A stretch of DNA of 64,000 nt, taken from the NCBI GenBank assembly GCA_039974975.1, contig JBDWHY010000081.1:20764-84763 (forward strand), read 5' to 3'. Below are positions 17,306 to 37,002 of the stretch, piece after piece (positions within the stretch are counted from its first letter, which is position 1; every line of letters begins with the position of its first letter). This DNA comes from Fuerstiella sp. GTDB taxonomy: Bacteria > Planctomycetota > Planctomycetia > Planctomycetales > Planctomycetaceae. The notes below the pieces were generated by a model, which did not search any database, was not told the DNA's origin, and was given only the letters and a program-made list of their open reading frames with translations. Both the position numbers and the translations under genes were made by a program.

Positions 17306-17537
17306 ATTCGACACTGGCAAAGGTGCTCGACTTCGCAGCAGCAAGCCATTCATTGCTATCCCTCGTGCGCGTGCGTGGGAGGGTGTTCTTTTACAATAAT
17401 TCTTTAACACACTCACACCAAGCGAAAGCTCGATTGGTCAGTACTTGGCGCGGCGTCGAACCTGTGGCAGGCTGTGTTACGTGAAACATGGTACGACCAA
17501 CCGACGGCCCGAAACGGATTCAGCCCGTCCGGAAGCG

Positions 17538-19034
17538 ATGGCCGGTCGAGATGAACTGAACCTTGTCGACTTTCCGATCGGAGTGCTGCGTCATCAACAA
17601 CCGGTTGATGCAGATGGTCGACGTCTGGAAGAACTGGTATTTTCTGTGGATGCTTTCACTGACAGTGTTGGAAAGATCGTTCCGCAGAAAGTCACCATTC
17701 GTACATCGTCGAAGTTTGGGTTTCCAACGCCGAAGGAAGAAGAGCTGCTAATCGGGCTGATGCTGTTCTGTCGCAGCCGCAATAACTTCACCGAAGCAAA
17801 AACAAAGTTTCAGGTCAGTGAGATGCTTGGGACGCTCGGTTGGCCGGACAATGGAAGAAGCCGCCGCCAGTTGCGAGAAGGTCTTGATCGGCTCGCTGGA
17901 GTTCGCCTGAAGTTCGAAAACAGTTGGAGTACCGACGAAGGCAAACAATACGAACGAGAATTCAACACTGGGATTCTGGATAGCTACGAGTTGCGTGTGG
18001 CCAACGATGGGCAGGGGGCAGATTCACGAGAACTCACCGCCATCCAGTGGTCAGCAGAAGTCTTCGCAGACATTCAACGTGGCAACGTAAAGGAACTGAA
18101 TACAGCCGAGTTCTTTTCACTGGAACGACCGCTTTCAAGGCGACTCTATCGGTATCTCGACAAACATCTGAAAGCAGGCCAGTGGTTTGAAATGGATCTG
18201 CTTCGCTTTGCGGCTCATCTGGGAATCACCGAGAAGTCTCACATCGGAAAGATTCGAGAGCGTCTGAAGAAGCCGATTCTTGAACTGGAACAACGCGGGA
18301 CTCTGTTTGAACCGTTGCTCGATGCAGAACGCTACCACCGTCTTGGCACGGGACACTGGCTGATTCGATTTCGCAGAGTTACCGGGAATCGTTCGGAAAC
18401 GACGACGCAGCGAGATCTATCAGCTCCTCAGGTGAGCCAAAACGCAGGCGAGAAGGCTCTACAACAACCTTCGCCACACCCAGCGAATCGGCGAGGCAAC
18501 AAGAAGAGGTTCTCCGATGCCGACCGCAAGCTTGTTCAGGAGTTCTATCACCTTTGGTCTGACAATGCTGAGCATGAACCGACTTTCCACGAATGCCAGC
18601 AGGCCCATTCCGTGATTCAGCAATACGGCGCCGCGAAAGCAATGGAATTGCTGCCTGCCGTCATAAAGCTCATGAAGCAACGCTTTCCCGATGCGACATC
18701 ATTCGGAGCCACAAAAACCTATTGGTCACTGGCAAACCAGAAAACGAAAGCCGGACAATCGACTCGACAGCTGGAAGCGACTCAGAGTGACAGCGACCGA
18801 AAAGAAGAGCAACGCAGACAGCAAGAACACCAACGCAAGCAGCAGCTTCACACGGAATGGAATCAGCTCGATGAACTTGCACAGGCAGCCATCCGTGACG
18901 AGGTGCTACAGCACTGCACAGACTTTGTTCGGCGAAAGATCGAACAACAGGAATACACCGATTCGCTCGTGATGCTGGCCTGCCTGAATCGCCTCGATCA
19001 GAAACAATCGAGCGCCGAAAGCACGCCGTTTTAG
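17538..19034 (+). CDS. plasmid replication initiator (RepA / replication-initiator-protein-A-like)
   Basis: N-terminus MAGRDELNLVDFPIGVLRH resembles the RPA-family start. Positioned immediately after the iterons and divergent from parAB. The ORF is open from TTG 17445; the ATG at 17538 is preferred. Confidence 0.6.
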   Translation: MAGRDELNLVDFPIGVLRHQQPVDADGRRLEELVFSVDAFTDSVGKIVPQKVTIRTSSKFGFPTPKEEELLIGLMLFCRSRNNFTEAKTKFQVSEMLGTLGWPDNGRSRRQLREGLDRLAGVRLKFENSWSTDEGKQYEREFNTGILDSYELRVANDGQGADSRELTAIQWSAEVFADIQRGNVKELNTAEFFSLERPLSRRLYRYLDKHLKAGQWFEMDLLRFAAHLGITEKSHIGKIRERLKKPILELEQRGTLFEPLLDAERYHRLGTGHWLIRFRRVTGNRSETTTQRDLSAPQVSQNAGEKALQQPSPHPANRRGNKKRFSDADRKLVQEFYHLWSDNAEHEPTFHECQQAHSVIQQYGAAKAMELLPAVIKLMKQRFPDATSFGATKTYWSLANQKTKAGQSTRQLEATQSDSDRKEEQRRQQEHQRKQQLHTEWNQLDELAQAAIRDEVLQHCTDFVRRKIEQQEYTDSLVMLACLNRLDQKQSSAESTPF

Positions 19035-19879: not shown

Positions 19880-20515
19880 ATGAATCGATGGGACAAATAT
19901 GACGTCAGCGGAAATGTGGAAGCTCAGTTTGCGGATGAGTCGGAAGATGTCCTTGTCAACAAACTCGGAATCAAGGAACTCGAACCACTTCAGTTGAAGG
20001 AAGAGGAAGGCCTCGCCACGGCGTACGAAATTCTGTTCAGCGAAGTCCGGACCGATACCGTTCTCACGACGCAATTAGTTCGCCACGTTCATGACCGCAT
20101 TTTCGGAGAACTTTTCGAATGGGCCGGGCGTTGGCGAACAGTCGTGATCAGCAAGCCAGGTGCGATCTGGCCTCCGCCTCAGTATCTGGACGCTGCTATG
20201 AAGTCATTCGAGACCGAGATCCTGTCGAAGTGCGAATCAGCGGACTTAGTAAGTGACGATGTCTTCGTCGAAATTTCGGCCGAGGTGCAGGGCGAGTTCC
20301 TCGCAATTCATCCGTTCCGAGAAGGCAATGCTCGAACGATCAAACTGGTGAACGATTTGTTGGCCGCTCAAACCAATCGCCCGATGCTGAAGTACGATCA
20401 ATCAGATGCTGGCCGTGATGAATACATCAACGCGGCGAAAGCAGCGATGGCGGCTCAGGACTATCGTCCGATGCAGTCGATTATTCGGACAGCATTGCAG
20501 CAGGCGACTGGCTGA
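19880..20515 (+). CDS. Fic/DOC-family protein with a non-canonical active-site motif
   Basis: 211 aa. N-terminal LVNKLGIKE as in the VbhT/Fic class. Fic motif HPFREGNARTIK at 20309-20344 versus the canonical HxFx(D/E)GNGRxxR. Confidence 0.85.
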   Translation: MNRWDKYDVSGNVEAQFADESEDVLVNKLGIKELEPLQLKEEEGLATAYEILFSEVRTDTVLTTQLVRHVHDRIFGELFEWAGRWRTVVISKPGAIWPPPQYLDAAMKSFETEILSKCESADLVSDDVFVEISAEVQGEFLAIHPFREGNARTIKLVNDLLAAQTNRPMLKYDQSDAGRDEYINAAKAAMAAQDYRPMQSIIRTALQQATG

Positions 20516-20687: not shown

Positions 20688-21373
20688 GCTGGAATTCTAC
20701 GCCATTGAGGGCCTGCTGTCACGAAGAATGTTATCGTCCTGCATTCGTTCCGGCGGGCAGCTAAAGGAAAGTGCGTAGGAAAAACAGCGACGCTGTTCGC
20801 GAGTGAGTCACCGGACCATGGCAAGAAAGATTCAGTGTCGACATCGCCAAAGCATTCGGGATTCCGGATTCGAGTACCGTTCCTTAAACTCGTAATCGGT
20901 CGGAATGGGGATTTAAGAGCAGTAATATCGCTTCGCAACAGGCCTGTCGATTTCTGTTGTCTGCTTGCAGTGGAAAACGAAATGTGCCTTGATAGCTCTC
21001 TTTGGAATGAACTTCAGGCTGGTAGCCTGAACTGTCCTCAATGACAACCGAGGCCAAGAACCGGCAAAGTTTGCCACCACGACAGTTGTGAGTCTCACTG
21101 TTCCCAGTATTACAGGACGCCTAACCGGACTGAGGAAGTGTGAGTCTCAACTGCCCCATCTTGGCGATGGTTGTCGGAAACACCACGTGGTTGCTAAAGA
21201 ATTCCCGCGAATCCACATTCGATACGTGAATCATGAAGCCGAGAAGAATATAGTAGTCCTCACGAATTCACGGTCGTAGCGGGGCTGAGGAACCGATAAC
21301 GAGAGGAAACAAGCGTGGCAGAGTACCACCAAATTTGCCACTCCAAACGTCTCCACAGTCGAGGATGGACGGC

Positions 21374-22378
21374 ATGAAGGCAGAAATGCTGAAAAGGCTC
21401 GTACGAGCAATTGCGATGGGGTCGCAAGACGACCTCACCCAGCTCGCTGACAAAATCGTGGAATCCGAACGCAAGAGCGGGCATTCTCGACTCGCCGGTG
21501 AACTCGAGTCCATTCTCGAAGAAAAGCCGAAACGAGCCACGAAACGATCGGGCCGAGCAGGGATCGACTCAGACAAAATCGTCCGGGAGCTCCCGATCAG
21601 CCGTCGTCATCAGGAGATGTTGGTCAGCTTCCTGCCGAATGACGCCTTGCAACATCACATCGTGCTGCCTGCCGACATCGAAGCACGCTTCGAGCAAATT
21701 GAAAAGGAGTTTGCCGCTCGTGAGCGTTTGTCGGCATATGGATTGAACCCGCGAAAGAAGATCCTTCTCTACGGTCCTCCTGGTTGTGGCAAAACATTAG
21801 GTGCCAAACGCCTTGCGTGGAACACCGGCTTGCCGCTAATGAAGGTTCGATTCGATGTTCTGGTGTCATCGTATTTCGGTGAATCGGCTTCGAACCTGCG
21901 AGCGGTCTTTGAGGCAGCCCGGGAGCAACCCTGTGTTCTTCTACTGGATGAGTGCGACTTTATCGCTCGATCTCGTGTTACCTCAAAGGACATTGGTGAA
22001 GTCGCTCGAATAGTAAATACTTTGTTGGCGTTAATGGAGGAGTACGATGCTCCGGGCTTGCTAGTCGCAACGACGAACATTGAATCGTCGCTGGACGAAG
22101 CACTTTTTCGCCGGTTCGACGACGTGTTTCAGGTTCCATTGCCAGGAAAAGAAGAGATCCAAAAGCTGCTAACAATGACACTTTCCAGCATCAAACAATC
22201 CAAGTCGATACGCTGGGATGAAATTACTGATAGACTAGGGGGGCTCTCAGCCGCCTACGTGGTGCGTGTTGCAGAGGCTGCAGCAAAGACTGCGGTGCTT
22301 TGCGGGAAACGTATTGTGGAACAAGAGCACTTCGACGCTGCAATAACGGAATTGAGGCGTCCAGATCAGGAGCAGTGA
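21374..22378 (+). CDS. classical AAA+ ATPase (IetA-like)
   Basis: Walker A LLYGPPGCGKTL, Walker B VLLLDECDF, second region of homology ATTNIESSLDEALFRRF. ATG 21374 is preceded by GAGGA; the ORF is open from 21335. Confidence 0.85.
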   Translation: MKAEMLKRLVRAIAMGSQDDLTQLADKIVESERKSGHSRLAGELESILEEKPKRATKRSGRAGIDSDKIVRELPISRRHQEMLVSFLPNDALQHHIVLPADIEARFEQIEKEFAARERLSAYGLNPRKKILLYGPPGCGKTLGAKRLAWNTGLPLMKVRFDVLVSSYFGESASNLRAVFEAAREQPCVLLLDECDFIARSRVTSKDIGEVARIVNTLLALMEEYDAPGLLVATTNIESSLDEALFRRFDDVFQVPLPGKEEIQKLLTMTLSSIKQSKSIRWDEITDRLGGLSAAYVVRVAEAAAKTAVLCGKRIVEQEHFDAAITELRRPDQEQ

Positions 22379-22391
22379 CGGGTAGCAATCA

Positions 22392-25055
22392 ATGTCCACA
22401 GGGCACAACTTTCAACACCTTCCCCTTCTCCGGCGTGAGGGTGGCCCAGCAAACATTCACGGCGGGGGATCATCATCGCCGTTGACGATTGAGAACAAAG
22501 CCAATCGCACCAGTCATAGTAGCGCCCTGGCTGCTGGCGCAACAAACGCCGCGAACGAGCGGCACAGAGTCGAGGCAGAACGCAAGGCTGAAGCTCTACC
22601 TGAGTTGCCTCCCGGTATTCCGCTTCTCCTGCAAGTTGATACAGAGCTGGATGTAGACGATCTGCGGCACTACTTCGACTTCGAGATAGTTTCCGAGGAA
22701 GAAGAGGGATTCGTGATTGTCGCGAGCAGCGACGTCGACCTGTCTGATTTTCTCGATGCGGTTAACAGGTTTGCGTCTACGAATACTCAGGACCAACGTG
22801 GGACCGCCACGATCGCGAGTGTTCATCGACTTGATGACGATGCCAACCAGAAGAAGCGACTGGAACTGATACTTTCAGAACAACTACATGAGCTCTGGCC
22901 GAACCTCAATGAGGCAACGAACTATCGCGTTGACGTTGGTGTGGCCTGTGTCGGTATCGAGGATATTCCCAAGCGCCCGAAACAACCCAAACGCCGCGAC
23001 AGTGAATCTGACGAATCCTGGGCGCGGCGAGAGAGTCACTGGACCGTGCGGGAGAACGTTTGGCAACAGGCGAGAACCAAGGCATATGACGCATGGCACG
23101 ACTTGAAAGACGAGCGTGAGGATGAAGTTCAGGCAATCGTGGAGGGCTATGGCGGAACAATTGCGGACGTCATCTACCAAGAACCACAGGACGCTCCTTC
23201 GCTCCCCGATAGCTTTACGATGCGGATCGAGGTCAATGGTAAGGCGTTGAAAGATTTCGTTCTCAACTTCCCGTTCGTCTTTGAAGTGACAGAACCGGAT
23301 GACGTCACCGTTCCAAGCTACGACATGGATGCTGGCCCTCAACCGGGTGAACTGCAGGAGCCGAATGCCCCGAATGAATGGGCTCCTGCAGTATGCGTCA
23401 TTGACAGCGGTATCCAGGAAGGGCATATCCTAATTGAGCCTGCAATCGACAAATCGACGTCTAGGTGTTTCTTGCCACCGCCTGAGGCAAGCACTGATGT
23501 CGCAGACTATGTTAGCCCGGGAGGGCATGGCACTCGTGTGGCGGGAGCGATTTTGTATGGCGAGCGTGTGGGGCGAAACTCCGCATATGACCTTCCTTTC
23601 TGGATCCAGAATGCTCGGGTTCTTGATGAAGACGGTTGCATGCCAATGTCATTATTTCCAGCAACACTGATTGGAACAGTCATTGAACACTTCCATAATG
23701 GTCCTCGCAAGACTCGAATCTTCAACCACTCGATCAATGCAGATTGCCATTGCCGCATCACTCATATGTCTGCGTGGGCAGCCGCAATAGACTGGCTTTG
23801 CTATGAACTTGATGTCCTTATCATCCAGAGTTCTGGAAATATTCCTGAGACTTCCACTGTTCCGAGTGCCGGAATCCGCGAGCATCTGAACGCCGGACGC
23901 CAATATCCGACATTCCTGACAGAACGTTCGTCGCGTGTGGCAAATCCGGGACAGAGCTTGCAAGCCATTACCGTTGGCTCTGTTGCCTATCAGCACTATC
24001 AATCGACTGGCTGGCGGAGTTTTGCAAGTCAAGAGGCAGAACCATCAAGTTTTAGCCGATCCGGATTGGGGATCTGGAACGTCATCAAGCCAGAAGTGGT
24101 TGAGTTCGGCGGGGACTATCTGCGTTCCCCGGGGACACCGCTGGTACTCAACATCCCCAATGAAGGATCGGATTGCTACCCGGAACTCGTTCGCTCAACT
24201 CTGCTCGGTCCGGGACCTGCGTACGACAAAGACGACATCGGAACTTCGTACGCTGCTCCGAAAGTCACTCATATCGCAGCGCACTTGCAACGTGTTCTTC
24301 CGGATGAACCGTGTCTGCTGTACAGGGCACTCATCATCCAATCCGCTCGCTGGCCGGAATGGACCCGTACCGAAGGCGTGGACACAAACCTTGCGATCAG
24401 AACTCTAGGATTCGGCATTCCGGATCTTGAACGAGCGACAACGAATACGAACTACCGAACAACGCTGGTTTCCTCAGGGGAAACGGGAATTTCTGCAGGA
24501 GAATGTGACGTCTATCAAGTGCCAATCCCAGACACAATGCGCAGTCCGGGCTACGAATACAACATCTTGATCGAAGTCACTCTATCGTATGTCGCGCAGC
24601 CACGACGCACACGCCGAAATTTGCGCCGCTACCTTTCGACGTGGCTTGAATGGAAAAGCAGCAATCTCGGAGAAGATATCGATTCATTCCGCGCTCGGGC
24701 ATTGAAAAACGAATCCGCTGACGACACGTTGGCACGTGGAACTTCAATACCGTGGGCTCTCAATATTCAATCGAACCATGGTACGATCGACGGAGTGGGA
24801 CGGAAATCTGGTACGGTGCAAAAAGATTGGGCAATCGTGAAGTCAAGTTCATTGCCGGAAAATTTTTGTGTCGCGGTCATGGGACACAAAGGCTGGAGTA
24901 AAGATCCCGACTCCCAAGCTAAGTACTCGATGGCAGTCAGTTTCGAGATCGTTGATCGACAGATTGAGATCTATGACGCAATGAGAATAGCGGTCGGCGA
25001 ACTCCAAAATGAGCTTGAGGTACAGACGGAATTTGAACTTGAAATTGAAGACTGA
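22392..25055 (+). CDS. large cytoplasmic S8 (subtilisin-like) serine peptidase (IetS-like)
   Basis: 887 aa with no signal peptide. Catalytic triad contexts VCVIDSGIQ (Asp), GGHGTRVAGA (His), GTSYAAPKVTH (Ser). Starts 14 nt after the ATPase gene. Confidence 0.9.
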   Translation: MSTGHNFQHLPLLRREGGPANIHGGGSSSPLTIENKANRTSHSSALAAGATNAANERHRVEAERKAEALPELPPGIPLLLQVDTELDVDDLRHYFDFEIVSEEEEGFVIVASSDVDLSDFLDAVNRFASTNTQDQRGTATIASVHRLDDDANQKKRLELILSEQLHELWPNLNEATNYRVDVGVACVGIEDIPKRPKQPKRRDSESDESWARRESHWTVRENVWQQARTKAYDAWHDLKDEREDEVQAIVEGYGGTIADVIYQEPQDAPSLPDSFTMRIEVNGKALKDFVLNFPFVFEVTEPDDVTVPSYDMDAGPQPGELQEPNAPNEWAPAVCVIDSGIQEGHILIEPAIDKSTSRCFLPPPEASTDVADYVSPGGHGTRVAGAILYGERVGRNSAYDLPFWIQNARVLDEDGCMPMSLFPATLIGTVIEHFHNGPRKTRIFNHSINADCHCRITHMSAWAAAIDWLCYELDVLIIQSSGNIPETSTVPSAGIREHLNAGRQYPTFLTERSSRVANPGQSLQAITVGSVAYQHYQSTGWRSFASQEAEPSSFSRSGLGIWNVIKPEVVEFGGDYLRSPGTPLVLNIPNEGSDCYPELVRSTLLGPGPAYDKDDIGTSYAAPKVTHIAAHLQRVLPDEPCLLYRALIIQSARWPEWTRTEGVDTNLAIRTLGFGIPDLERATTNTNYRTTLVSSGETGISAGECDVYQVPIPDTMRSPGYEYNILIEVTLSYVAQPRRTRRNLRRYLSTWLEWKSSNLGEDIDSFRARALKNESADDTLARGTSIPWALNIQSNHGTIDGVGRKSGTVQKDWAIVKSSSLPENFCVAVMGHKGWSKDPDSQAKYSMAVSFEIVDRQIEIYDAMRIAVGELQNELEVQTEFELEIED

Positions 25056-28305: not shown

Positions 28306-30432
28306 ATGTATTTTCGACTACTGACGCCCACAGGCAATCGACGAGGCCCCGTGTTTACGGAGAATGTCCTACGTGCCCTTCATCAGGCAGATCACCGTCG
28401 ACACGGAATCACCCTGCGACTGGACTCGATCGGTGGAAGTACACAACTGGGAGTCGAATTCCCCGCAGATTTACGAGCGGTTGTGATTTCGGGGCTGCAG
28501 GATTCATACCCCGGAATGGAGGCTCATCCGAGTGAATCTCTGCCAGTTGCTTCGATGCCGTTTCAGTGGGAGTGTGCGTTGCGAAAAGATGTCGACGTCT
28601 TCTCGTTGATGACCAGTGACAGATTCACGGATGAAGTTTTCCGAAACGACTTCGCTGATCCACTGTCAGGAGTTCTGTCGTCTCTTCAGTCTGGTCGGGC
28701 CGGGAGAATGGGATTCAGTGTCGAGTTGAGTATCCGTCCAGCTACGAAGAGAAGGCTGAAGCAAGCAACACGCCTGCGGCTGCGTTTGCGACGAGCGTTC
28801 TGGCCTGCCTCTGCAAAAACCTGGTATCTCAAACTTGCGATGAGCTCTTCAAAGCTGCGTCGCGCAGCAGCCACTCTACCACTTCTGTGTTCGCATCGAT
28901 CTCCATCTGCTGAGAATGATCAAGAATCATCCCTTCCTGCCACGTTCGAGTGCCATCTGGTACTGAGGGTCGCGGCCACGGAAAACGTTCGTCAGATCGC
29001 ATTGAAACGCCTTTCCGAGATTGCCGGAACCTTCGCTCGATTTCAGTCCGGTGAATCTCAGTTGGTTACCGGGCCTGTGATGGCTGTTACCCCGCGACGA
29101 CGAAGCAGAGGCCGAGGATTCCTAATGAACGTAGCTGAAATTGCCTCGATGTGGCATCCACCAACAGAAACCACCGATAGTGTGGCTCGAGTTTCCCGGG
29201 GAAACTTTCGAGAACTGGAGCCACCCAACGAACTGGCTGCAGTGGGAGACCGTGAAGGCACAGTTCTGGGACGGGTTGTTTTTCGCAATGAACGAACGCG
29301 GATCAAAATCTCTCACGATGACTTGCGACGACATCTCTTTGTTATTGGAAAAACGGGAACAGGGAAGTCGACATTCCTGCTGAATGTCGTTCGCCAACAG
29401 ATGGAGTCTGGGCGAGGCGTCATTCTGATCGACCCGCACGGACAGCTAGCCGATGAGGTGCTTAGCTGTGTTCCAAAGCGGCGAAAGAACGACGTGGTTA
29501 ATTTTGATGTGTCGAATGTATCACGACTTCCAGCATTCAATCCCATGGTGGGGCCGAGCGGTGCCGATCCAACACTCACCGCGGATGCCGTCTTGACGTC
29601 GTTCAAGAATGTCTTTGGCTTCGACGAAGGATCAGCACCCCGCCTTTTGCACATCTTTCGCAATTGTCTACTGGCCTTAGTGGGAACACCGGAGGCTAAT
29701 CTGGCTTCGGTTCAGCGACTATTAATTGATGAGCTGTTTCGAAAGTCGCTGATCGCCCGAATTTCAAACGACGCTGTCCGTGAATTCTGGCTGACAGAAT
29801 TTCAACGGTGGAGTGCGAGGGATCGCACTCAGTACATTGCCAGCCTGCAGAACAAACTGGGTGCCTTCACGACCAACGAACGCTTGAATACCATTTTAAA
29901 CCCCACAACGAAGAGGAGAGGAATCGTCCTGCGGGATGTGATGGACTCGTCAAAGATCCTGATCTGCAATTTGAGCAAAGGCCAAGTGGGCCATGACGCA
30001 TCAAAGCTCCTCGGATCTCTGTTGTTATCCAGTCTGCAAGTTGCTGCGATGAGTCGTGCAGATATTCCGGAGCACGAACGAACCGACTGCACGGTCGTCA
30101 TTGACGAGTTCCATTCGTACCTCGCCGAAGGAAATTCCACGATGGCGGATGCTCTGGCGGAATCCCGCAAGTACCGCTCAAACTACGTGCTTAGCACTCA
30201 AATGTTGGACGGCCAGCTTGATTCCGCCACCCTCGCCGGAGTCCTCGGAAACTGCGGATCATCCCTGTGCATGACCGTCGGCCCCAAGGATGGAGCCTTG
30301 ATGGCCGAGCTACTCGGAAAGGGTCTGACTCCCGAAGATCTGATGCAGATCCCTAAGTTTCACGGGTATTTGAGGCTGCTTGTTGATGGGGTGCCGAAGA
30401 CGATGTCTATCAAGACTACGCTGGCAATGTAG
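28306..30432 (+). CDS. FtsK/HerA/TraD-superfamily P-loop ATPase (type IV coupling protein-like, no N-terminal TM)
   Basis: Walker A FVIGKTGTGKST, DPHGQLADEV, Walker B VVIDEFHSY. A soluble N-terminal domain of about 340 aa. Confidence 0.75.
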   Translation: MYFRLLTPTGNRRGPVFTENVLRALHQADHRRHGITLRLDSIGGSTQLGVEFPADLRAVVISGLQDSYPGMEAHPSESLPVASMPFQWECALRKDVDVFSLMTSDRFTDEVFRNDFADPLSGVLSSLQSGRAGRMGFSVELSIRPATKRRLKQATRLRLRLRRAFWPASAKTWYLKLAMSSSKLRRAAATLPLLCSHRSPSAENDQESSLPATFECHLVLRVAATENVRQIALKRLSEIAGTFARFQSGESQLVTGPVMAVTPRRRSRGRGFLMNVAEIASMWHPPTETTDSVARVSRGNFRELEPPNELAAVGDREGTVLGRVVFRNERTRIKISHDDLRRHLFVIGKTGTGKSTFLLNVVRQQMESGRGVILIDPHGQLADEVLSCVPKRRKNDVVNFDVSNVSRLPAFNPMVGPSGADPTLTADAVLTSFKNVFGFDEGSAPRLLHIFRNCLLALVGTPEANLASVQRLLIDELFRKSLIARISNDAVREFWLTEFQRWSARDRTQYIASLQNKLGAFTTNERLNTILNPTTKRRGIVLRDVMDSSKILICNLSKGQVGHDASKLLGSLLLSSLQVAAMSRADIPEHERTDCTVVIDEFHSYLAEGNSTMADALAESRKYRSNYVLSTQMLDGQLDSATLAGVLGNCGSSLCMTVGPKDGALMAELLGKGLTPEDLMQIPKFHGYLRLLVDGVPKTMSIKTTLAM
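29189..29206. repeat. second copy of the parS-like palindrome, inside the ATPase gene
   Basis: GAGTTTCCCGGGGAAACT is identical over 18 nt to 16816-16833. Confidence 0.8.
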
Positions 30433-30463
30433 GCCGAAGGAATTGTAGTGTTCAATGACCGAC

Positions 30464-30940
30464 TCAGTGCCTTTCATCCAGCCTTTTCAAAAGCATCTGG
30501 CAGTGATTACCAATTGCCCAAAAATCAGAAACTATTGCACACTGATGAAAGCCAAGCTTTTCAAAGAAACGAATCGTTCCTTGAAAGTGAAGCCCGGAAA
30601 CACTGGGTTCAGGAAACTGTGAGTCAATAGTCGCTGTCTTCGCAATCACCATTCGTTGCGTCGTTGCGGTTTCCAGGACTGCTTCTACCAAGCAAGAACC
30701 GACTCCGTTGCGACCTTCCATAGGGTCAATGGCAAGCCAAAGAAGTTCAATCTCAACAGAATGGCTTATCCAAACAATGAACCCATGGACCACGCAATTT
30801 GTTTCGTAAACCAAGGAGTTAAGATTCAGGAAGTCATCTGCAATGTAAGCATGAGACTCTGGAATAAAGTGTGTGCCAAGAGATGCGATGATGTCCATGA
30901 CTCGCGGCAAGTCCTGCTCGTTGCCGTTTCTAATAACCAT
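30464..30940 (-). CDS. GNAT-family N-acetyltransferase
   Basis: 158 aa. Acetyl-CoA pocket region IELLWLAIDPMEGRNGVGSCLVEAV. C-terminal FFEKLGF. Start overlaps the upstream gene's end by 11 nt. Confidence 0.8.
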   Translation of the reverse strand: MVIRNGNEQDLPRVMDIIASLGTHFIPESHAYIADDFLNLNSLVYETNCVVHGFIVWISHSVEIELLWLAIDPMEGRNGVGSCLVEAVLETATTQRMVIAKTATIDSQFPEPSVSGLHFQGTIRFFEKLGFHQCAIVSDFWAIGNHCQMLLKRLDERH

Positions 30941-31622
30941 CTGACACCCTCAAGGAGACGTGAGTCCTCTCTGCGCAAGGAAATGGGAAGTCAACGAAGT
31001 TGCCAGCGGAACAAGCGGCCATAATTTCCATGTCTTCGCCGGGGTAAATCTCAACTTTGTATCCCATCTGATAGATGCGGATGAACATCGCGAGTTCTTC
31101 GATTACGTACTCGCGAAGACAATTGAGTTCCAATGAACTCAACTCTAGTTGATCCTGCCTAAGCGTAAATCGCTTGACCGACTGATCGACCAACTCGAGA
31201 AACCGCTCGTTCTTCAGTGAAAATACCGCGATTTTATTCTTAATAGCCGCGTATTCGTAAGTCTTCAGCTCTGCTTCCCAGTCAAAGACACGCAGATTGA
31301 CGTTGACTTTGTCAGCCACGATACGACCGAGTCGCCGCTGGAACTTTCCAACTTGTTTCCGCACTAACTCTTCACACACCTCCATGGGTAAGTGGTCGAA
31401 AACCATAAGATTCCAACGATTGACGAAATATCCTTGAACAATCATCACCGACTCGGTTCGCTCAAGTGTCCAGTCCACAATTGCTCGCAAACGTCCAGCG
31501 TTGACATGGGGAGTTGTTGGGCTTAGCCCAACAAAGCATGAAACCTGACCGGAGAGGAAATCACTCACCAATGGCCCATTGGTGTGCAGGTCATTCATTT
31601 TAACATCAAAATGCTTAGACAC
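30930..31622 (-). CDS. cyclodipeptide synthase (CDPS)-like protein
   Basis: 230 aa. CFVGLSPTTP (compare AlbC ALIGISAGNS, catalytic Ser). IVDWTLERTESVMIV (compare LLQWAGQRFERTDVV). REYVIEELAMF with Y-x3-E (compare NYVLAEAPLF). VEIYPG. Comparison to AlbC is from memory. Confidence 0.65.
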   Translation of the reverse strand: MSKHFDVKMNDLHTNGPLVSDFLSGQVSCFVGLSPTTPHVNAGRLRAIVDWTLERTESVMIVQGYFVNRWNLMVFDHLPMEVCEELVRKQVGKFQRRLGRIVADKVNVNLRVFDWEAELKTYEYAAIKNKIAVFSLKNERFLELVDQSVKRFTLRQDQLELSSLELNCLREYVIEELAMFIRIYQMGYKVEIYPGEDMEIMAACSAGNFVDFPFPCAERTHVSLRVSDGY

Positions 31623-31692
31623 GATGGCGTATGTCTCATTCTAGGTACTGTGCGCTCGAGAGGATTGACTGTAGGTGACGGGAGACCCAACG

Positions 31693-32940
31693 TCACTTAC
31701 GAACCAAACAGCCATCACATTCTGCAAACAAACCAACAAGAAACGTTTGAAATACTTGCGACTTTTTTCGTCCAGACGATTTAAGCACATTCATGAAATT
31801 ATCAGTGAATCGTGTCATTCTGGTGAAGGCCCTGCCGTCTTTATGCTTCTCAAAAAAACCGACATCGGCGTTCAAGGAAAGCAGTTTCCTCAAATGCGAT
31901 TCTGCTCGGTCGATTCTCTTGCCGATTCGATCCCGTGTTTTCTTTGAGGCATCATTGCCAGAGGAAGCAATCACATCCAGATCAGTGGTTTCTTCAAAGA
32001 ACCGGATCGCTGCCACATCGTTGACAAGTCCCTTTTGTGACGGGATAGCTTTGCAAATCATGTAAAATGCCAGAGTCTGAATTCTCTCTCGTTGTTTGGC
32101 GGCTCCAGCAACCAAGTTTGCCCCCGCTTTCGAACTTAATTTCATTCCCTTCACGCAGTTGATGGAAAACAATTCTACTCTTGAGCCGTCTGATACGAAT
32201 GCAGTGAATTTCAGCCGATTATCGTGCTCTGTCCAGTCTATTTCGAATCGTAAGTCCCGGACATCCGATCGAGCTCTTTCCTCTAAGAGAATCGAACGGT
32301 CGACAAGTGAGTGGAGTCGATGCTCGTAATTCTGCAAAAAAGAGTTCGGGAGGCAACGAGTTAACGCGGTCGCCAAATCTTGATCTAGACGTTCTGACCA
32401 GCTAGCCATCAGGATCGATTGTCGCAAAAAATATGCAATGAAACGAAGCTGTTGTGGCAGATTGGTCCAGCTGGCAGGCTCCGTTTGCGATTGGGGAAGA
32501 AAGTACAACATGGATGTTGGGCGTTTGAGCCACGCCCGCCAGATCCGAACATGTCGCGGTGTTGAGTCGTCGCTGCCAAACAGGATGGAGACGGGTTCAG
32601 CAATTTCATTCAAGCCACAGTTTCCAATCAGGTCCATATCGATTGCTGCTGGATGAGGCGATTCATTGTCCCTGTCCGGAACTTTGCAAAGCAGTTCCAC
32701 GGAAAGTATATTAGATCGCGGCAAGACGTAGTGACAATCGACAGCGTCGTTTGCCATTTCTGGTGCGAAATTGACGAACTCAGCAAAATAGACATCACCT
32801 TTTGCGATAGGCCGTTCACCTTCAGGCTCCCGGAACACAACCCCTACAATCCCTGAACAGCAGTCAAGCTCATGAGCAAGTTCTTGCAAGAAGGGACGTA
32901 TTACAGTTCCGAGGACGGCTAAGTCATTCGTTTCAGCCAT
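31693..32940 (-). CDS. hypothetical protein, 415 aa, no recognisable family
   Basis: ATG 32940 lies 1 nt after the transporter stop (32942-32944). The ORF is open from 32988. Operon position is between the transporter and the CDPS-like gene. Confidence 0.6.
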   Translation of the reverse strand: MAETNDLAVLGTVIRPFLQELAHELDCCSGIVGVVFREPEGERPIAKGDVYFAEFVNFAPEMANDAVDCHYVLPRSNILSVELLCKVPDRDNESPHPAAIDMDLIGNCGLNEIAEPVSILFGSDDSTPRHVRIWRAWLKRPTSMLYFLPQSQTEPASWTNLPQQLRFIAYFLRQSILMASWSERLDQDLATALTRCLPNSFLQNYEHRLHSLVDRSILLEERARSDVRDLRFEIDWTEHDNRLKFTAFVSDGSRVELFSINCVKGMKLSSKAGANLVAGAAKQRERIQTLAFYMICKAIPSQKGLVNDVAAIRFFEETTDLDVIASSGNDASKKTRDRIGKRIDRAESHLRKLLSLNADVGFFEKHKDGRAFTRMTRFTDNFMNVLKSSGRKKSQVFQTFLVGLFAECDGCLVRK

Positions 32941-32941
32941 G

Positions 32942-34462
32942 TCACCTGCTGCCCAATGCCGAGCCTTGCTGAGAGCTTTCAACGTCATGCTCTGAGGAAT
33001 TTACGTTCACATTCCAGCAACGGATGCTGAGAATTGCGAAAGATACAGTTGCAACACCGAGCGCCGCCGCCGGAGCGTTATATGTCCAATCCAAATTGTT
33101 GGTTAGTTTTCCGTAGAACGCACTGCACCAAGCGGCCAAGAACCCACCAGTTATCGCCACGATAGCAGCAGGGGCAGCCTTTCTCAGGTTCAAACGAGTC
33201 CTAAGAAACAAAGCCGCTCCAACCACTGGAAACACGGCGAGTTGGGCACCATAAATAGCGAATATTAGTTGAACAACGTCAAAGCGAATGAGATGCAGTG
33301 TGGCAAACAGGCCAAAAGATACAACGGCAATCGTCCCGAGTGCTATTCTGGATAACTGCACTGCTTTTGCATCCTCAATCTCTCGTTTATCGAGGTTGAA
33401 GGTGTCAATGACACACATTTGGCCAGCAACGAGTAACAGACTGTCGGCGGTCGTGATCATAGCGGCAAAAAGGCCGAGCATCAACATGCCAAGAATCAGC
33501 AGGCCGATGCCCCGGCTTTCTGCGAGTTCGGAGACGATAAAGTTCATGAGGGTTGTCTCGCCCGGGACAAAACCGCCTGTGTAGATCGCAAGGCTCGAGA
33601 GGATGCAGCTAAACAAAATCAGCGAGCCCCACAAGACGACGAACAACTTGATTGCAGACTTCAGCCCAGATTGTGCTGCATCAACACTCTTTACGGCACA
33701 GAGACGGTGCCATGTGCCAGCATCACTAATCGCAGCAGGCACATTCATCACAATGATGCCGACGACGAATGACGAGGAGGCTGACCAGTCGGAGAACACA
33801 TTCTGCATGATCTTCGGCCAGGGCACTGGGGCTACAGTGCGGTAATCCAAGAACAGAACGGTGATTGGCAGCATGAGAATAGCGACAACAATAAATCGAA
33901 AATGCCACTGCTCGGTCGCAACGACTGCTTTGAATCCAGCGATGATGCTGTACGCCACCAAGAAGAGAAGATAGAGCACGGCAAATGCGATTGACCAGTC
34001 TCCAAGGAACGGGTTGAGAATACTCACGCCCACTAACAACTCCATCGCGAAGATGCTGACATATCCGACAAAAGTGAAAAGCAACGCCACACGTTTCACA
34101 TATTTGCTTGAGTAGGCAGTACCAAGAAATGATTGCAGCGTTTCGTTCGTCGGGTTTTGCGAAAGGACATAGGGAACTGCGAGGTACAAGACGCAGAAGC
34201 CCACTGCGTACGAGGCGATTGTTACGAACAGTCCAAGGCCCACGTAGGGCGCCAGATTGACCAATGCAAGAATGACGGTCGCTAGCGAAAGGCCAGAAGA
34301 AACAGTACTGCGTGAGTAAGTGTCAGCTTGAATATGCCGAGTCAAGGGAAAGAACGAAGCAAGCGAATTGACTTGCTTCGATTCTCTGAGAGCTAGTCTG
34401 AAGTACAGAACGGCCGGGACAATGATTGCGGCGAAGACCACATAGTAAGCTGATGTATTCAT
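32942..34462 (-). CDS. sodium:solute symporter (SSS)-like polytopic transporter
   Basis: 506 aa with about 13 TM helices. SSS-like stretches (ETLQSFLGTAYSSKYVKRVALLF; VAYSIIAGFKAVVATEQWHF). Confidence 0.65.
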   Translation of the reverse strand: MNTSAYYVVFAAIIVPAVLYFRLALRESKQVNSLASFFPLTRHIQADTYSRSTVSSGLSLATVILALVNLAPYVGLGLFVTIASYAVGFCVLYLAVPYVLSQNPTNETLQSFLGTAYSSKYVKRVALLFTFVGYVSIFAMELLVGVSILNPFLGDWSIAFAVLYLLFLVAYSIIAGFKAVVATEQWHFRFIVVAILMLPITVLFLDYRTVAPVPWPKIMQNVFSDWSASSSFVVGIIVMNVPAAISDAGTWHRLCAVKSVDAAQSGLKSAIKLFVVLWGSLILFSCILSSLAIYTGGFVPGETTLMNFIVSELAESRGIGLLILGMLMLGLFAAMITTADSLLLVAGQMCVIDTFNLDKREIEDAKAVQLSRIALGTIAVVSFGLFATLHLIRFDVVQLIFAIYGAQLAVFPVVGAALFLRTRLNLRKAAPAAIVAITGGFLAAWCSAFYGKLTNNLDWTYNAPAAALGVATVSFAILSIRCWNVNVNSSEHDVESSQQGSALGSR

Positions 34463-35421
34463 CTCTTCGTCCTTTTCAGAGTTTTTCCAAACGTGTCAGC
34501 CCTCTCCTCTACTAGATGAGTCAGCGACAGACCAGAGCGACAGATGCAGAGCACCTTTTTTTTGAACATCGCCCTGAATGCCTGAGAAAACGGATGGCGT
34601 TTGATGATGAATTGGGCTTCTGTCGCGGTGCAAAGGAAATGTGTCGCTCATTGGCGTCAGCAGACGAATATCCCGTCTTTGACACATGACGACACATTCA
34701 CCTGCTCAAAGGACAGCTTGGGACGCTGGCAGATCTTTTTTATATCTTAGAGCTATGAAAAGCCTTCGTTTAGACAAGGTGTTCGCTTTCGTGACATGAG
34801 ATCGACGAGAAAAATTCTGTCAACTCCATGTGGCGCACATAGAAAGGAAACCCCTGAGGCCTGACTTACGAATGGTTTGGGGTTTTAACGCCCAACAAAG
34901 TCACATCTGAAAGACCGGGTATCACATGGTGACACCCGGCTCGTCAGACACTGACGGCAAAGCGTTTATCAGTGATGACTTCCTTGAAGCCGTTCGCAGC
35001 GGCTGCAAAGCACTCAAACTTCCTTGGCGCTCTGATTCCTCGAATTTCTGATTGCTGTGCAGTCATGATGAGGCCAGTGTCCCACGAAGTGAAACGACGT
35101 GTCAAGCAAAACGCTGTGATTGGCTACACGCTGATTGCAGCGTTTTTTATTGGCTTCGACTCAGAAGGTCCCCAGCATGTACCACGGTAGTGAATTGAGC
35201 ACGCCTGAAACGCCAGCTACTTGGAAGTGCCTTGAGTGCAATAAGAAGCAAAGAGGCCGACCTCAAATACGTGTTCCAAGTTTCTTCGAACCCGTGCGGG
35301 TCTCATGCACTGAATACGGCGGAGACATTGTGTGGTTGAATTTACAGCCACCAAAGTCCGGCACCATTGCTTCCCGGTAGCGTGGCCGTCGCTTCTATTA
35401 CCCCATCAAAAGGACTTCGAC

Positions 35422-37002
35422 ATGACGCGATTTACATTGGGACGATTTGCAAGTGTATTCCTGCCGACGCTGATCTTGGCAGGAGGTGGCCAAGCCACTT
35501 TGGCGAAGGACTACGTCGCAGTTATCGACACTTCCGCATCGATGAAAGCTGATAGCAAACTTAAATATGCGATTGCTGGAGTCGAAACATTCTCAGCACT
35601 CCTGCAACCGGATGACACACTGCACGTAATCTCATTCAACACATCCTCGACGATTGACGGACCATTCGAGATGGCCGAGGATCGCGAGCAGCTCGCGAAG
35701 ACCACTTCACGATTAAGAGCGACGGGCGGCACAGATTACCTACAGGCGTTGCAAGCCCTGGCACACTCAGAAGGACCTATTCACACTGTTTTCCTGTCTG
35801 ACGGTGCCCACATGGGTGAGCCAGATGATGTGATCAACTACGTGGAACAGCATCTCGCCGATCAAGTGACGATTCATACGATCTCCGTTGGTTGCCCAAA
35901 GGGATCAAACGCAGAACGGCTGTTGAGCCGGATGGCGGTTGTCACAGATGGGTCGCACAGTCGCGTGGAATCCAGTGAGGAGCTTGTCCGGACTTTCCTG
36001 CGGATCGCAATGCAGACACGAGAGTACCGTGGTTTCGAACCATCGAAAGACGAAGTGACAATCAGCGGTCTGCAGGGGAGTGTGCTGGCGTTCGCTTACG
36101 ACGGAGAACCGAGCCTCTCCGTGCCAGTCGAGCGTAGTCGCCAATTCAGGTTGCCAGGGGAAACCGTGAGCCTCGCGGTTGCCAGTCCTTCTGCGGGCGA
36201 GACAGTGGTCGTCAAGCTGCTTGAACGAGCTTCGCCCACTGCCCGGTTGGGCGCAGTTTACACGGATGGGTTGCCCACCCACAAATTGACCATTCTGAAC
36301 CATAGTAGTAGCTATGAGGCAGGCACAGAACTCTCCCTCCTCACTCATTTCCATCATCCAGAATCCAAACGCCCTGTTCCGGTCACCAGCGGGGCTTCAG
36401 CAGAGGTTGAACTGCTTGATGACAGCGGGAATTCAGTTAGCAAGGTCCGTCTGGATTCAGAAGGAGATGCCCTTCGAGGCGTGTTAATGCTGCCCCAAAG
36501 CGAGGGTGTGTGCCAGCTTCGTGTGTCTTCAGTCTGGGAGGTCGATGGTAAACCGTTTGTGCAAATTTCCGAAACAGCAATCATCGTGACCCCTCCGGCT
36601 GTTCAGCCAACTCCAACGCCCCCGAAGAAACCTGCTCCGCAGGAAGAGCCGAAAGTAGAGACGAACCCAGAGTTGTTTTCTGCTTCTCAAAGCCAATTCG
36701 AACTCACCGCTCCTGCCGACGACGTCGTCCGTTTTCAGCTAACTTTTTCGCCGCTGCCAAATCACACGGGAGCAACAAAGCTGACCGCAGATTTTGCAGA
36801 GTTCACGGGCGGCGATGTGGCACAGGACATCATCACGAATGTGAAGTGGGCGCCTTCTGCGACCATTCGCGGAGCCAAGGGGAAGGTAAAACTAGACGCC
36901 GCAATCCTGAGCCCACCAGTCGCTGGAGTTTATAAGTCGACGCTCACGATTAGTGGCAAAAATCAGTCTCTTGATATTCCGGTAACGCTCACAGTCAAGT
37001 GA
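35422..37002 (+). CDS. secreted von Willebrand factor A (vWA) domain protein
   Basis: Signal peptide MTRFTLGRFASVFLPTLILAGGGQATLA. Complete MIDAS (DTSAS, ATGGTDY, LSDGA). Pro-rich linker and a C-terminal beta-rich domain. The ORF is open from 35332. Confidence 0.8.
   Translation: MTRFTLGRFASVFLPTLILAGGGQATLAKDYVAVIDTSASMKADSKLKYAIAGVETFSALLQPDDTLHVISFNTSSTIDGPFEMAEDREQLAKTTSRLRATGGTDYLQALQALAHSEGPIHTVFLSDGAHMGEPDDVINYVEQHLADQVTIHTISVGCPKGSNAERLLSRMAVVTDGSHSRVESSEELVRTFLRIAMQTREYRGFEPSKDEVTISGLQGSVLAFAYDGEPSLSVPVERSRQFRLPGETVSLAVASPSAGETVVVKLLERASPTARLGAVYTDGLPTHKLTILNHSSSYEAGTELSLLTHFHHPESKRPVPVTSGASAEVELLDDSGNSVSKVRLDSEGDALRGVLMLPQSEGVCQLRVSSVWEVDGKPFVQISETAIIVTPPAVQPTPTPPKKPAPQEEPKVETNPELFSASQSQFELTAPADDVVRFQLTFSPLPNHTGATKLTADFAEFTGGDVAQDIITNVKWAPSATIRGAKGKVKLDAAILSPPVAGVYKSTLTISGKNQSLDIPVTLTVK

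Follow-up and report, generated by a model that had tools for sequence, protein, structure and literature searches.

A predicted XYP-type cyclodipeptide synthase and its fixed partner genes form a horizontally spread cassette in Fuerstiella and other bacteria

Introduction

In the classical gene clusters built around cyclodipeptide synthases (CDPSs) the synthase is accompanied by cyclodipeptide oxidases, P450s, 2-oxoglutarate/Fe oxygenases, methyl- or prenyltransferases and MFS-type efflux proteins (PMC5767969; PMC5816076). Here we analysed a 64-kb stretch of DNA from a Fuerstiella (Planctomycetota) metagenome-assembled genome (contig JBDWHY010000081.1), termed the window throughout, in which four minus-strand genes at positions 30464-34462 encode an SSS-like permease, an orphan protein of 415 residues, a predicted CDPS and a GNAT. 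Like the clusters for albonoursin (AlbA/B/C), pulcherriminic acid (YvmC-CypX), mycocyclosin (Rv2275-CYP121) and bicyclomycin (BcmA-G), this cassette combines a CDPS with linked genes, which in the known clusters often include a transporter. It lacks, however, the classical tailoring set, its fixed partners being the GNAT, the SSS-like permease and a protein of unknown fold, joined by kinase, phosphatase and sigma-factor genes in related (sibling) cassettes, and whereas the classical clusters are found mainly in Actinobacteria and Firmicutes, the cassette occurs on mobile elements in six or more phyla.

CDPS fusions and GNAT-fold neighbours of CDPSs have been reported before. Fusions to P450 (CDPS 71), methyltransferase and ABC-transporter domains are known from the NYH subfamily (Gondry et al. 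2018, PMC5816076). As in these CDPS-tailoring fusions, the CDPS is N-terminal and the pathway domain C-terminal in the CDPS-GNAT fusions described below, but here an XYP enzyme is joined to a GNAT, a combination not contained in PMC5816076. In a global survey (Skinnider et al. 2018, PMC5767969) N-acetyltransferases belonged to the biosynthetic domains met with most often near CDPSs, and a predicted operon of a CDPS and a GNAT-fold ligase has been described for Rickettsiella grylli (Aravind et al. 2010, PMC2922099). Both reports share with the cassette a GNAT-fold protein beside a CDPS that is proposed to modify the peptide; they consist, however, of domain counts and of a single example, respectively, without the permease, the orphan, the kinase partners or fusions, and the window GNAT is a single-domain, RimI/Naa-like protein of 158 residues, not a double-GNAT ligase of the Fem/MprF type.

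The initial annotation of the window, made from the sequence alone, had regarded a GNAT plus an orphan protein as an unusual tailoring set for a CDPS. This view needs to be divided: a GNAT beside a CDPS is not rare (PMC5767969, PMC2922099), but no characterised CDPS-GNAT pathway is listed in the CDPS reviews and surveys that we consulted. Likewise, our literature search, which lay outside most subscription journals, found neither a CDPS-GNAT fusion nor the permease/orphan/CDPS/GNAT cassette described. What appears to be new here, beyond the single-sequence view of the initial annotation, is a conserved cassette around a CDPS with fixed partners and a new accessory domain.

A four-gene block that recurs in distant phyla

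The four open reading frames (ORFs) that had been called at 30464-34462 are all intact, with coordinates and junctions confirmed:

32942-34462, minus strand: SSS-like permease gene, 506 residues, first gene of the operon
31693-32940, minus strand: orphan gene, 415 residues with the ATG at 32940 as start; the open frame extends to 32988, corresponding to 431 residues
30930-31622, minus strand: CDPS gene, 230 residues, GTG start
30464-30940, minus strand: GNAT gene, 158 residues

A single base (32941) lies between the permease stop and the ATG of the orphan gene, for which the N-termini of homologues favour the 415-residue start over the 431-residue one. The orphan stop is followed by a 70-nt gap before the CDPS start, and the CDPS gene shares 11 nt (30930-30940) with the GNAT gene. 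The block was also described as AT-richer than its surroundings, which is borne out by a G+C content of 48.6% vs a window mean of 52.5% (standard deviation 1.6, 4-kb windows); the shift is modest in size, yet the block is the 4-kb stretch of lowest G+C in the 64 kb, with 0.3% of the 4-kb windows being equally low. An Rfam scan of 30000-36000 (E ≤ 1) found no riboswitch or leader, and the signals of a promoter/terminator scan did not exceed shuffled expectation.

The same gene set is present in more than 20 independent loci, so that the arrangement is far beyond chance. With the permease as sole bait, nine loci were retrieved from species-representative genomes (Isosphaeraceae, Chthoniobacter, Ca. 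Thiodiazotropha, Leptolyngbyaceae, a Lyngbya confervoides plasmid contig, two Victivallales, Desulfobacterales and Desulfatiglans). A CDPS homologue adjoins the permease or lies within ~4.4 kb of it in all nine, and eight of them contain a GNAT domain. The same bait yielded 12 loci in metagenomes, nearly all of those with sufficient flank carrying a CDPS. Starting from the CDPS relatives, contigs were read for 10, and all 10 have a homologous GNAT, either as the next gene downstream, as fusion partner of the CDPS or as the N-terminal domain encoded by a gene in the same operon. The cassettes are distributed over at least six phyla, with loci in Planctomycetota, Verrucomicrobiota, Cyanobacteria, Gammaproteobacteria, Victivallales and Desulfobacterota. 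The exact permease/orphan/CDPS/GNAT order of the window is retained in L010/L011, in L014 (Isosphaeraceae) and in L012, where the contig is cut at both ends, L numbers denoting individual loci. Mean pairwise identity amounts to 52% for the permease and to 32% each for CDPS and GNAT, making the permease the best-conserved part of the cassette, and the pairwise identities of the three proteins co-vary over 13 cassettes (Spearman 0.34-0.61). By adjacency and, for the GNAT, gene fusions, GNAT and permease are obligate partners of the CDPS, and the whole is a conserved, horizontally spread, multi-phylum small-molecule cassette with fused variants.

The cassettes differ in architecture:

Type A: permease / orphan / CDPS (Ser) / GNAT; window, L010, L012, L014, and L005, the contig of which is cut upstream of the orphan
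Type B: Cys-CDPS ('PIC') / permease / GNAT-X of 700-780 residues / ~500-residue protein / sigma-70 region-2 (ECF-like) protein; L016-L020, L028
Type C: CDPS-GNAT (fused or split) / N-domain plus TCAD9/APH kinase-like protein / PP2C-like phosphatase / permease; L001 = L015, L030, L038; L027

L021 has the type B genes with the CDPS moved downstream, and the type B locus L017 is the one genome locus in which no GNAT match was detected. The ~500-residue protein of type B is conserved, is devoid of a recognisable domain and precedes the sigma-type gene, which was identified by Pfam in L016, L018 and L020 and by similarity in L028. In the first three of these the last gene of the operon is located as follows:

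L016:13088-13774: sigma-70 region-2 (ECF-like) protein
L018:13547-14443: sigma-70 region-2 (ECF-like) protein
L020:13139-14026: sigma-70 region-2 (ECF-like) protein

In type C, N-domain, TCAD9/APH kinase-like domain and PP2C/SpoIIE phosphatase are combined in one protein of 1065 residues beside a CDPS-GNAT fusion in L027 (L027:2538-5735, minus strand), while in L038:5404-11338 these parts are encoded by separate genes, arranged as membrane protein / CDPS / GNAT / TCAD9 protein / PP2C. Searched against PADLOC, the PP2C-like protein of L001 gave a marginal PDC-M21C match only.

The predicted cyclodipeptide synthase

The proposal that the 230-residue protein is a tRNA-dependent CDPS, made in the initial annotation by comparison with AlbC, is supported by family profiles, a profile search of the PDB, the predicted fold and the catalytic residues. 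The protein scores 48.6 bits against NCBIfam TIGR04539 (cut-off 45, E 7e-13) and 25.9 bits against Pfam CDPS (PF16715; E 1e-5), the latter being just below the cut-off of 27. A clade profile built from an alignment of the 30 best CDPS relatives matched 23 distinct sequences in the PDB, all of them deposited as CDPS or known CDPSs (AlbC, YvmC, 5mlp), with E-values of 1e-28 for 9gun, 3e-25 for 9j61, 4e-19 for 5ocd, 5e-11 for AlbC and 6e-5 for Rv2275. An AlphaFold2 (AF2) model based on the 30-sequence alignment has a mean predicted local distance difference test (pLDDT) score of 96.1 and a predicted TM-score of 0.91. In a Foldseek search of the PDB with this model ranks 1-48 are all CDPSs (E down to 2e-13, TM-score 0.64-0.88), XYP enzymes coming first, and the TyrRS-type entry 4nx2 follows at rank 49, in agreement with a compact Rossmann-type fold related to class-Ic aminoacyl-tRNA synthetases.

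The peptides on which the initial annotation had relied (CFVGLSPTTP, IVDWTLERTESVMIV, REYVIEELAMF and VEIYPG) are all present in the 230-residue product. A significant family match, a synthetase-related fold, the Ser and the Y-x3-E pair were each recovered. Aligned with the characterised enzymes, for which catalytic residues and the XYP motif (X40/Y202/P203 vs N40/Y202/H203) have been defined (PMC11580168), the predicted functional positions are:

S34 (in G-L-S-P): aligns with AlbC S37 and SsBcmA S43; predicted carrier of the acyl intermediates
T37: 'X' position of the XYP signature
R96/R97: align with AlbC R98/R99; basic helix
Y172: aligns with AlbC Y178; invariant in the 30-sequence clade alignment
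E176: aligns with AlbC E182; invariant in the 30-sequence clade alignment
Y193-P194: Tyr-Pro of XYP; Y193 corresponds to the Tyr of V-Y-P-G in 9j61 and 9gun; Y193 invariant, P194 nearly so

Y193 fills the position of the cyclisation Tyr (AlbC Y202), and helix 80-102 of the model bears R88, K89, K93, R96, R97 and R100. In AlbC R98 and R99 are the residues of the basic patch most important for activity (PMC3105412). As judged from alignment and model, the 230-residue protein is a cyclodipeptide synthase in which all catalytic residues are present, and T37, Y193 and P194 together with the best matches (9j61, 5ocd, 5mlp, 5mlq) place it in the XYP subfamily. The GenBank entry MEP3479756 is annotated 'tRNA-dependent cyclodipeptide synthase' by the NCBI Prokaryotic Genome Annotation Pipeline (PGAP), and the identity of the enzyme is already part of the public annotation and not new.

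The closest enzymes of known structure are the XYP CDPSs SsBcmA (9J61), Fdum-CDPS (5OCD), Rgry-CDPS (5MLP) and Nbra-CDPS (5MLQ) and a putative Porphyromonas gingivalis CDPS (9GUN). They have the same fold (TM-score 0.72-0.88) and share the Ser/Tyr/Glu/Tyr set, the Tyr-Pro signature and the basic helix with the window CDPS, which nevertheless is only 12-21% identical to any solved CDPS, the P. gingivalis enzyme being nearest by profile (E 1e-28), and which differs from SsBcmA by a Glu in place of M204 of the P1 pocket. This residue, E191 (codon 31050-31052), is a nearly invariant Glu across the clade, and the enzymes of P. gingivalis and F. dumoffii carry a Glu there, too. Two invariant motifs, G64-x4-R-W-N and E191-x-Y-P-G, are peculiar to the clade. 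A search of 1.84 billion cluster representatives with phmmer returned 188 clusters at E ≤ 1e-3, 12 of them at E ≤ 1e-30 and the best being 38% identical, and a word-index search with the clade profile returned 12 proteins only. The sequences define a separate, divergent and sparsely sampled clade with no member near a biochemically characterised CDPS. A product prediction from the residues that map onto the P1 pocket of SsBcmA (F30, G32, V62, G64, M179, F180, E191) was attempted and abandoned, the clade being too remote from the characterised enzymes.

One subclade carries Cys instead of the catalytic Ser, within the motif P-I-C or G-[IV]-C, and has I-G-D-Y-x-E-R-H-N instead of E-G-x-x-x-x-R-W-N. 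Its members, which also include P0016 and P0023-P0026, are encoded at:

L016:7243-8004: Cys-for-Ser CDPS
L017:3889-4764: Cys-for-Ser CDPS
L018:7107-7838: Cys-for-Ser CDPS
L019:7268-7999: Cys-for-Ser CDPS
L020:7204-7986: Cys-for-Ser CDPS
L021:7910-8665: Cys-for-Ser CDPS
L022:3268-4764: Cys-for-Ser CDPS

This exchange would imply natural thioester intermediates. The only other Cys-for-Ser CDPS that we encountered is the engineered AlbC S37C variant (4Q24). Among more distant CDPS relatives, P0108 (417 residues) has a cyclic-nucleotide-binding domain (PF00027, E 3e-9) as fusion partner.

The GNAT acyltransferase

The GNAT label of the fourth gene is confirmed by Pfam, by homology to fusion proteins and by profile matches in the PDB. 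The window protein itself scores 26.8 bits against Acetyltransf_7 (cut-off 27) and 18.2 bits against Acetyltransf_1. The C-terminal domains of the CDPS-GNAT fusions P0006 and P0029, to which it is 35-36% identical over its full length (E 3e-34), are above the Pfam cut-offs with 34.4 and 32.6 bits. The fusions comprise four cluster representatives at 50% identity (P0006, P0015, P0028, P0029; 406-435 residues), and their CDPS domains belong to the same clade as the window enzyme. In the PDB the family profile matched Ard1/Naa 4pv6 (E 6e-6) and RimI 9mto (E 4.5e-5), and the window protein matched TIGR01575 rimI with E 2.6e-4. The acyl-CoA pyrophosphate loop between β4 and α3 (Q/R-x-x-G-x-G/A) reads G-R-N-G-V-G. 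Sequence comparison thus suggests a single-domain GNAT closest to N-alpha-acetyltransferases of the RimI/Naa type. RimI and Naa10 (Ard1), its closest solved relatives, resemble it in length and single-domain architecture; the similarity is weak, however, and well under the family cut-offs, and the window GNAT family differs from them by its constant pairing with a CDPS and by an invariant motif of its own, E-x-E-[LM]-L-W.

Other roles of the GNAT were considered and rejected. Peptide ligases of the Fem type consist of a double GNAT of ~300 residues or more with a tRNA-binding helix (PMC12945691), whereas the window protein is a single domain of 158 residues and no Fem-type structure is among its PDB matches, which argues against a ligase of the Fem/MprF/L,F-transferase type. 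A TacT-like toxin was discarded as well, as no TacT, AtaT, ItaT or KacT structure was matched at E ≤ 0.1, no PADLOC match was obtained and the gene overlaps the CDPS gene and not an antitoxin gene.

The orphan protein and its N-terminal domain

No Pfam, PDB, PADLOC or PHROG match was obtained with the orphan, and its family profiles A3 and A6 gave only chance-level matches in PDB and Pfam (mL115, E 0.007; ABC_membrane, 0.015; TetR_C_33, 0.01). A word-index search of 5.8 billion proteins did not return anything, not even the orphan itself, and both the 415- and the 431-residue product are absent from a collection of 15 billion proteins. The protein is also missing from the public annotation of the contig: GNAT, CDPS and permease have consecutive accessions (MEP3479755-57), leaving none for the orphan, and between the locus tags ABJZ55_10945 (GNAT) and ABJZ55_10955 (permease) there is one slot, which is that of the CDPS. 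Yet the closest CDPS relative (L005) is directly preceded by a gene for a protein with 34% identity to the orphan over 318 residues (E 1e-54), and further homologues were found in L010 (L010_443), L012 (L012_407), L014 (L014_455) and L033 (L033_467), in the same position in L010/L011, L012 and L014 and adjoining the permease in L033. Its homologues mark the orphan as a real conserved gene that automatic annotation has missed, and the label "orphan" holds in the sense that no library contains a match, although the protein is conserved in sibling cassettes.

The maximum 19-residue hydropathy is only 1.25, so the orphan is soluble. A single-sequence AF2 model was unusable (pLDDT 39). The part of the protein that could be related to other proteins is:

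32341-32925, minus strand: N-terminal domain of the orphan, residues 6-200

An hhalign comparison of the orphan family with the TCAD9/APH kinase-like family of the sibling cassettes aligned residues 6-200 with residues 9-189 at 98% probability (E 1.8e-13), an earlier alignment of the same families having reached 95%. In line with this, BLASTP matched L037_166 to residues 19-90 of the orphan (40% identity, E 5e-8). The kinase domain itself is located downstream of the shared N-domain, at residues 275-575 in L001_652. These comparisons firmly point to a cassette-specific domain of ~190 residues at the N-terminus of the orphan that is homologous to the domain preceding the kinase in the ~650-residue TCAD9/APH proteins. 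A link of the N-domain to residues 212-427 of GNAT-X, which follow the GNAT domain, is weak (E 0.09). The C-terminal half is predicted to be mostly helical, and no DNA-binding or other output domain was recognisable in profile searches of the orphan. The idea that this half is a degenerate kinase was dropped, as hhalign gave no signal against the kinase domain.

The SSS-like permease

The description of the first gene product as an SSS-like transporter with 13 transmembrane segments holds as a distant likeness. The permease has 13 hydrophobic peaks and matches TIGR00813 ('sss') with 35.1 bits (E 7.6e-9), far under the cut-off of 184, over residues 81-420 and profile positions 45-396 of 411. 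All five homologues examined match the same profile as well (best E 1.9e-11), PutP and PanF matches being weaker and all scores remaining far under the cut-offs. A Pfam match was not obtained, nor was a match to PDB sequences, including a search with the permease profile, and the NCBI annotation reads 'hypothetical protein ABJZ55_10955'. Based on these matches we term the protein SSS-like, a putative distant relative within the APC-fold superfamily, and do not call it a member of the SSS family. Between the window and other cassettes the permease is 51-55% identical, vs ~35% for the CDPS.

Proposed function and alternative explanations

As judged from its protein sequences, the cassette most likely serves to make and acylate a small molecule derived from a dipeptide and to move it across the membrane, and is carried as cargo of mobile elements. 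The CDPS would take two aminoacyl-tRNAs and form aminoacyl-Ser34 and then dipeptidyl-Ser34, from which the cyclodipeptide would be released. In the same pathway the GNAT may acylate a free amino group, be it on the product, on a side chain or on a linear intermediate (aminoacyl or dipeptidyl), and the SSS-like permease would move the compound or a precursor across the membrane, in either direction. The orphan may be a cassette-specific accessory protein that binds product or intermediate or has a regulatory or scaffolding role. On balance, we consider it probable that block 30464-34462 is a single transcription unit encoding a self-contained, horizontally mobile small-molecule cassette with this full pathway. 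The cassette would then be a concrete unit of four genes and 4 kb for a probably new acylated compound derived from a dipeptide, made by a separate CDPS clade with a different, fixed partner set. The natural CDPS-GNAT fusions and the Cys-for-Ser variants offer material for enzymology, and the links to kinase, phosphatase and sigma-factor genes suggest a regulatory or signalling role for tRNA-derived peptides.

Several points weigh against this pathway. A cyclodipeptide has no free alpha-amine, the group that is acetylated by GNATs of the RimI/Naa type; therefore, the acceptor would have to be a side chain or a linear intermediate, unless the GNAT has another role such as immunity. In addition, the acyl-CoA loop is degenerate in the GNAT homologues of L013 and L022. 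Characterised SSS transporters are importers. Efflux genes near CDPSs are mostly of the MFS type (PMC5767969), and export by the permease would thus be unusual. E191 cannot be interpreted in terms of substrate choice since Fdum-CDPS, which makes cyclo(Gly-Gly), also has a Glu at this position. The kinase-like, PP2C and sigma-factor genes of the sibling cassettes look regulatory and not biosynthetic.

The regulatory look of these genes leads to a tentative alternative, which we regard as possible but unlikely: a signalling circuit of mobile elements in which CDPS and GNAT make an acylated dipeptide signal, the SSS symporter re-imports it and the N-domain proteins sense it. With similar reserve, the C-terminal domain of the orphan might serve as output in the window, and the kinase/PP2C pair or an ECF-type sigma factor in other cassettes. 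Should cyclisation be prevented by acylation of the intermediate while it is bound to the enzyme, the signal could conceivably, though again doubtfully, even be a linear N-acyl dipeptide; the ~190-residue domain would be ligand-sensing. Such a circuit would account for the TCAD9/APH kinase-like and PP2C/SpoIIE proteins of sibling cassettes, fused in L027, for the sigma-70 region-2 protein that ends the operon in L016, L018, L020 and L028, and for the N-domain that the orphan has in common with the kinase-like proteins; the fusion of P0108 to a cyclic-nucleotide-binding domain, the import function of characterised SSS proteins and the presence of the cassette on conjugation-type elements fit as well, and the stronger conservation of the permease (52% mean identity vs 32% for the enzymes) is as expected if the ligand is constant across cassettes. 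If true, plasmids and integrative elements would carry a small-molecule communication or control circuit of a new kind. However, no homologue of the kinase, PP2C, sigma-factor or Y-protein genes of the other cassette types is found elsewhere in the 64-kb window, the orphan has no recognisable DNA-binding or output domain, ligand binding by the N-domain is purely putative, and regulators are common in ordinary biosynthetic clusters, too.

The closeness of the GNAT to RimI/Naa N-alpha-acetyltransferases could also be read as self-protection in an antibiotic-type cluster, the GNAT disarming a toxic aminoacyl or dipeptide compound by N-acetylation, in the way that the RimL-like domain of MccE acts on processed microcin C, and the permease acting as exporter. 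Since GNATs that confer immunity may be joined to biosynthetic domains, the CDPS-GNAT fusions are compatible with such a role, and resistance near CDPSs is usually provided by efflux genes (PMC5767969). We nevertheless judge it improbable, as the invariable presence of the GNAT, its fixed place directly after the CDPS and its co-divergence with the other parts fit a pathway enzyme at least equally well, the acyl-CoA loop is degenerate in some members and the SSS family is not known for export. Still less probable, to a degree that we give it very little weight, is a conflict or defence system directed at the aminoacyl-tRNA pool, in which the GNAT would acetylate aminoacyl-tRNAs like TacT or AtaT and the CDPS would consume charged or N-blocked tRNAs. 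Both enzymes could plausibly touch aminoacyl-tRNA, conflict-type genes lie nearby (an AAA ATPase and S8 subtilase pair and a Fic protein, see below), and the kinase-like partners match Pfam TCAD9, 'ternary complex associated domain 9', TCAD domains having been defined in conflict systems. Yet none of the four window proteins matches PADLOC, the GNAT profile retrieves no TacT, AtaT, ItaT or KacT structure at E ≤ 0.1, an invariant and highly conserved permease has no role in intracellular tRNA targeting, and IMG/VR viral contigs contain no permease homologue. Finally, the four genes might be unrelated neighbours and the 415-residue ORF spurious, for which the missing PGAP call and the empty word-index search of 5.8 billion proteins could be cited. 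This explanation, to which we attach next to no probability, is refuted by the orphan homologues, found in the same position in L005 (E 1e-54), L010, L012 and L014 and also in L033, by a gene order that recurs in distant phyla and by the fusion of CDPS and GNAT elsewhere. Biosynthesis, acylation and transport of a dipeptide-derived compound hence remains the reading that we prefer.

Genomic context and further loci

The cassette had been placed between conjugation-type and vWA modules of an island, which agrees with the flanking genes: on one side ParB, an RPA-type initiator, Fic, the AAA ATPase and S8 subtilase pair, a primase-like protein, Replic_Relax and a DUF87/TrwB-type ATPase, and on the other side two vWA proteins. 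The former include:

15019-15969, minus strand: ParB
17445-19034: RPA-type replication initiator
19880-20515: Fic/DOC protein
21335-25055, plus strand: AAA ATPase (347 residues) and S8 subtilase (887 residues) pair, just upstream of the primase/Replic_Relax/TrwB module

ParB and the RPA-type initiator suggest that the window is part of a plasmid or of an integrated plasmid-like element and not of the core chromosome. Within the preferred reading, the cassette would probably be cargo of a plasmid-like element or of one resembling an integrative conjugative element in the Fuerstiella genome. Homologues of the permease are absent from PLSDB plasmids as well as from IMG/VR viral contigs. Between the operon start and the divergent vWA gene, 870 nt (34463-35331) contain no convincing ORF; Rfam matches were not obtained in this stretch, and promoter and terminator signals did not rise above background. 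Sibling cassettes have similar surroundings: L001 also contains primase, Replic_Relax and TrwB-type genes, the TrwB-like proteins of window and L001 being 33% identical, plus a resolvase, L005 contains an IS1595 transposase and an integrase, and L018 is the Lyngbya plasmid contig.

In two loci (L024:2203-2856 and L025:4816-5469) a protein of 217 residues with marginal likeness to CDPSs (Pfam E 0.003; BLASTP E 1e-5) is encoded directly upstream of a permease homologue. A GNAT was not detected nearby in either locus, and the two may represent a further, more divergent type of the cassette.

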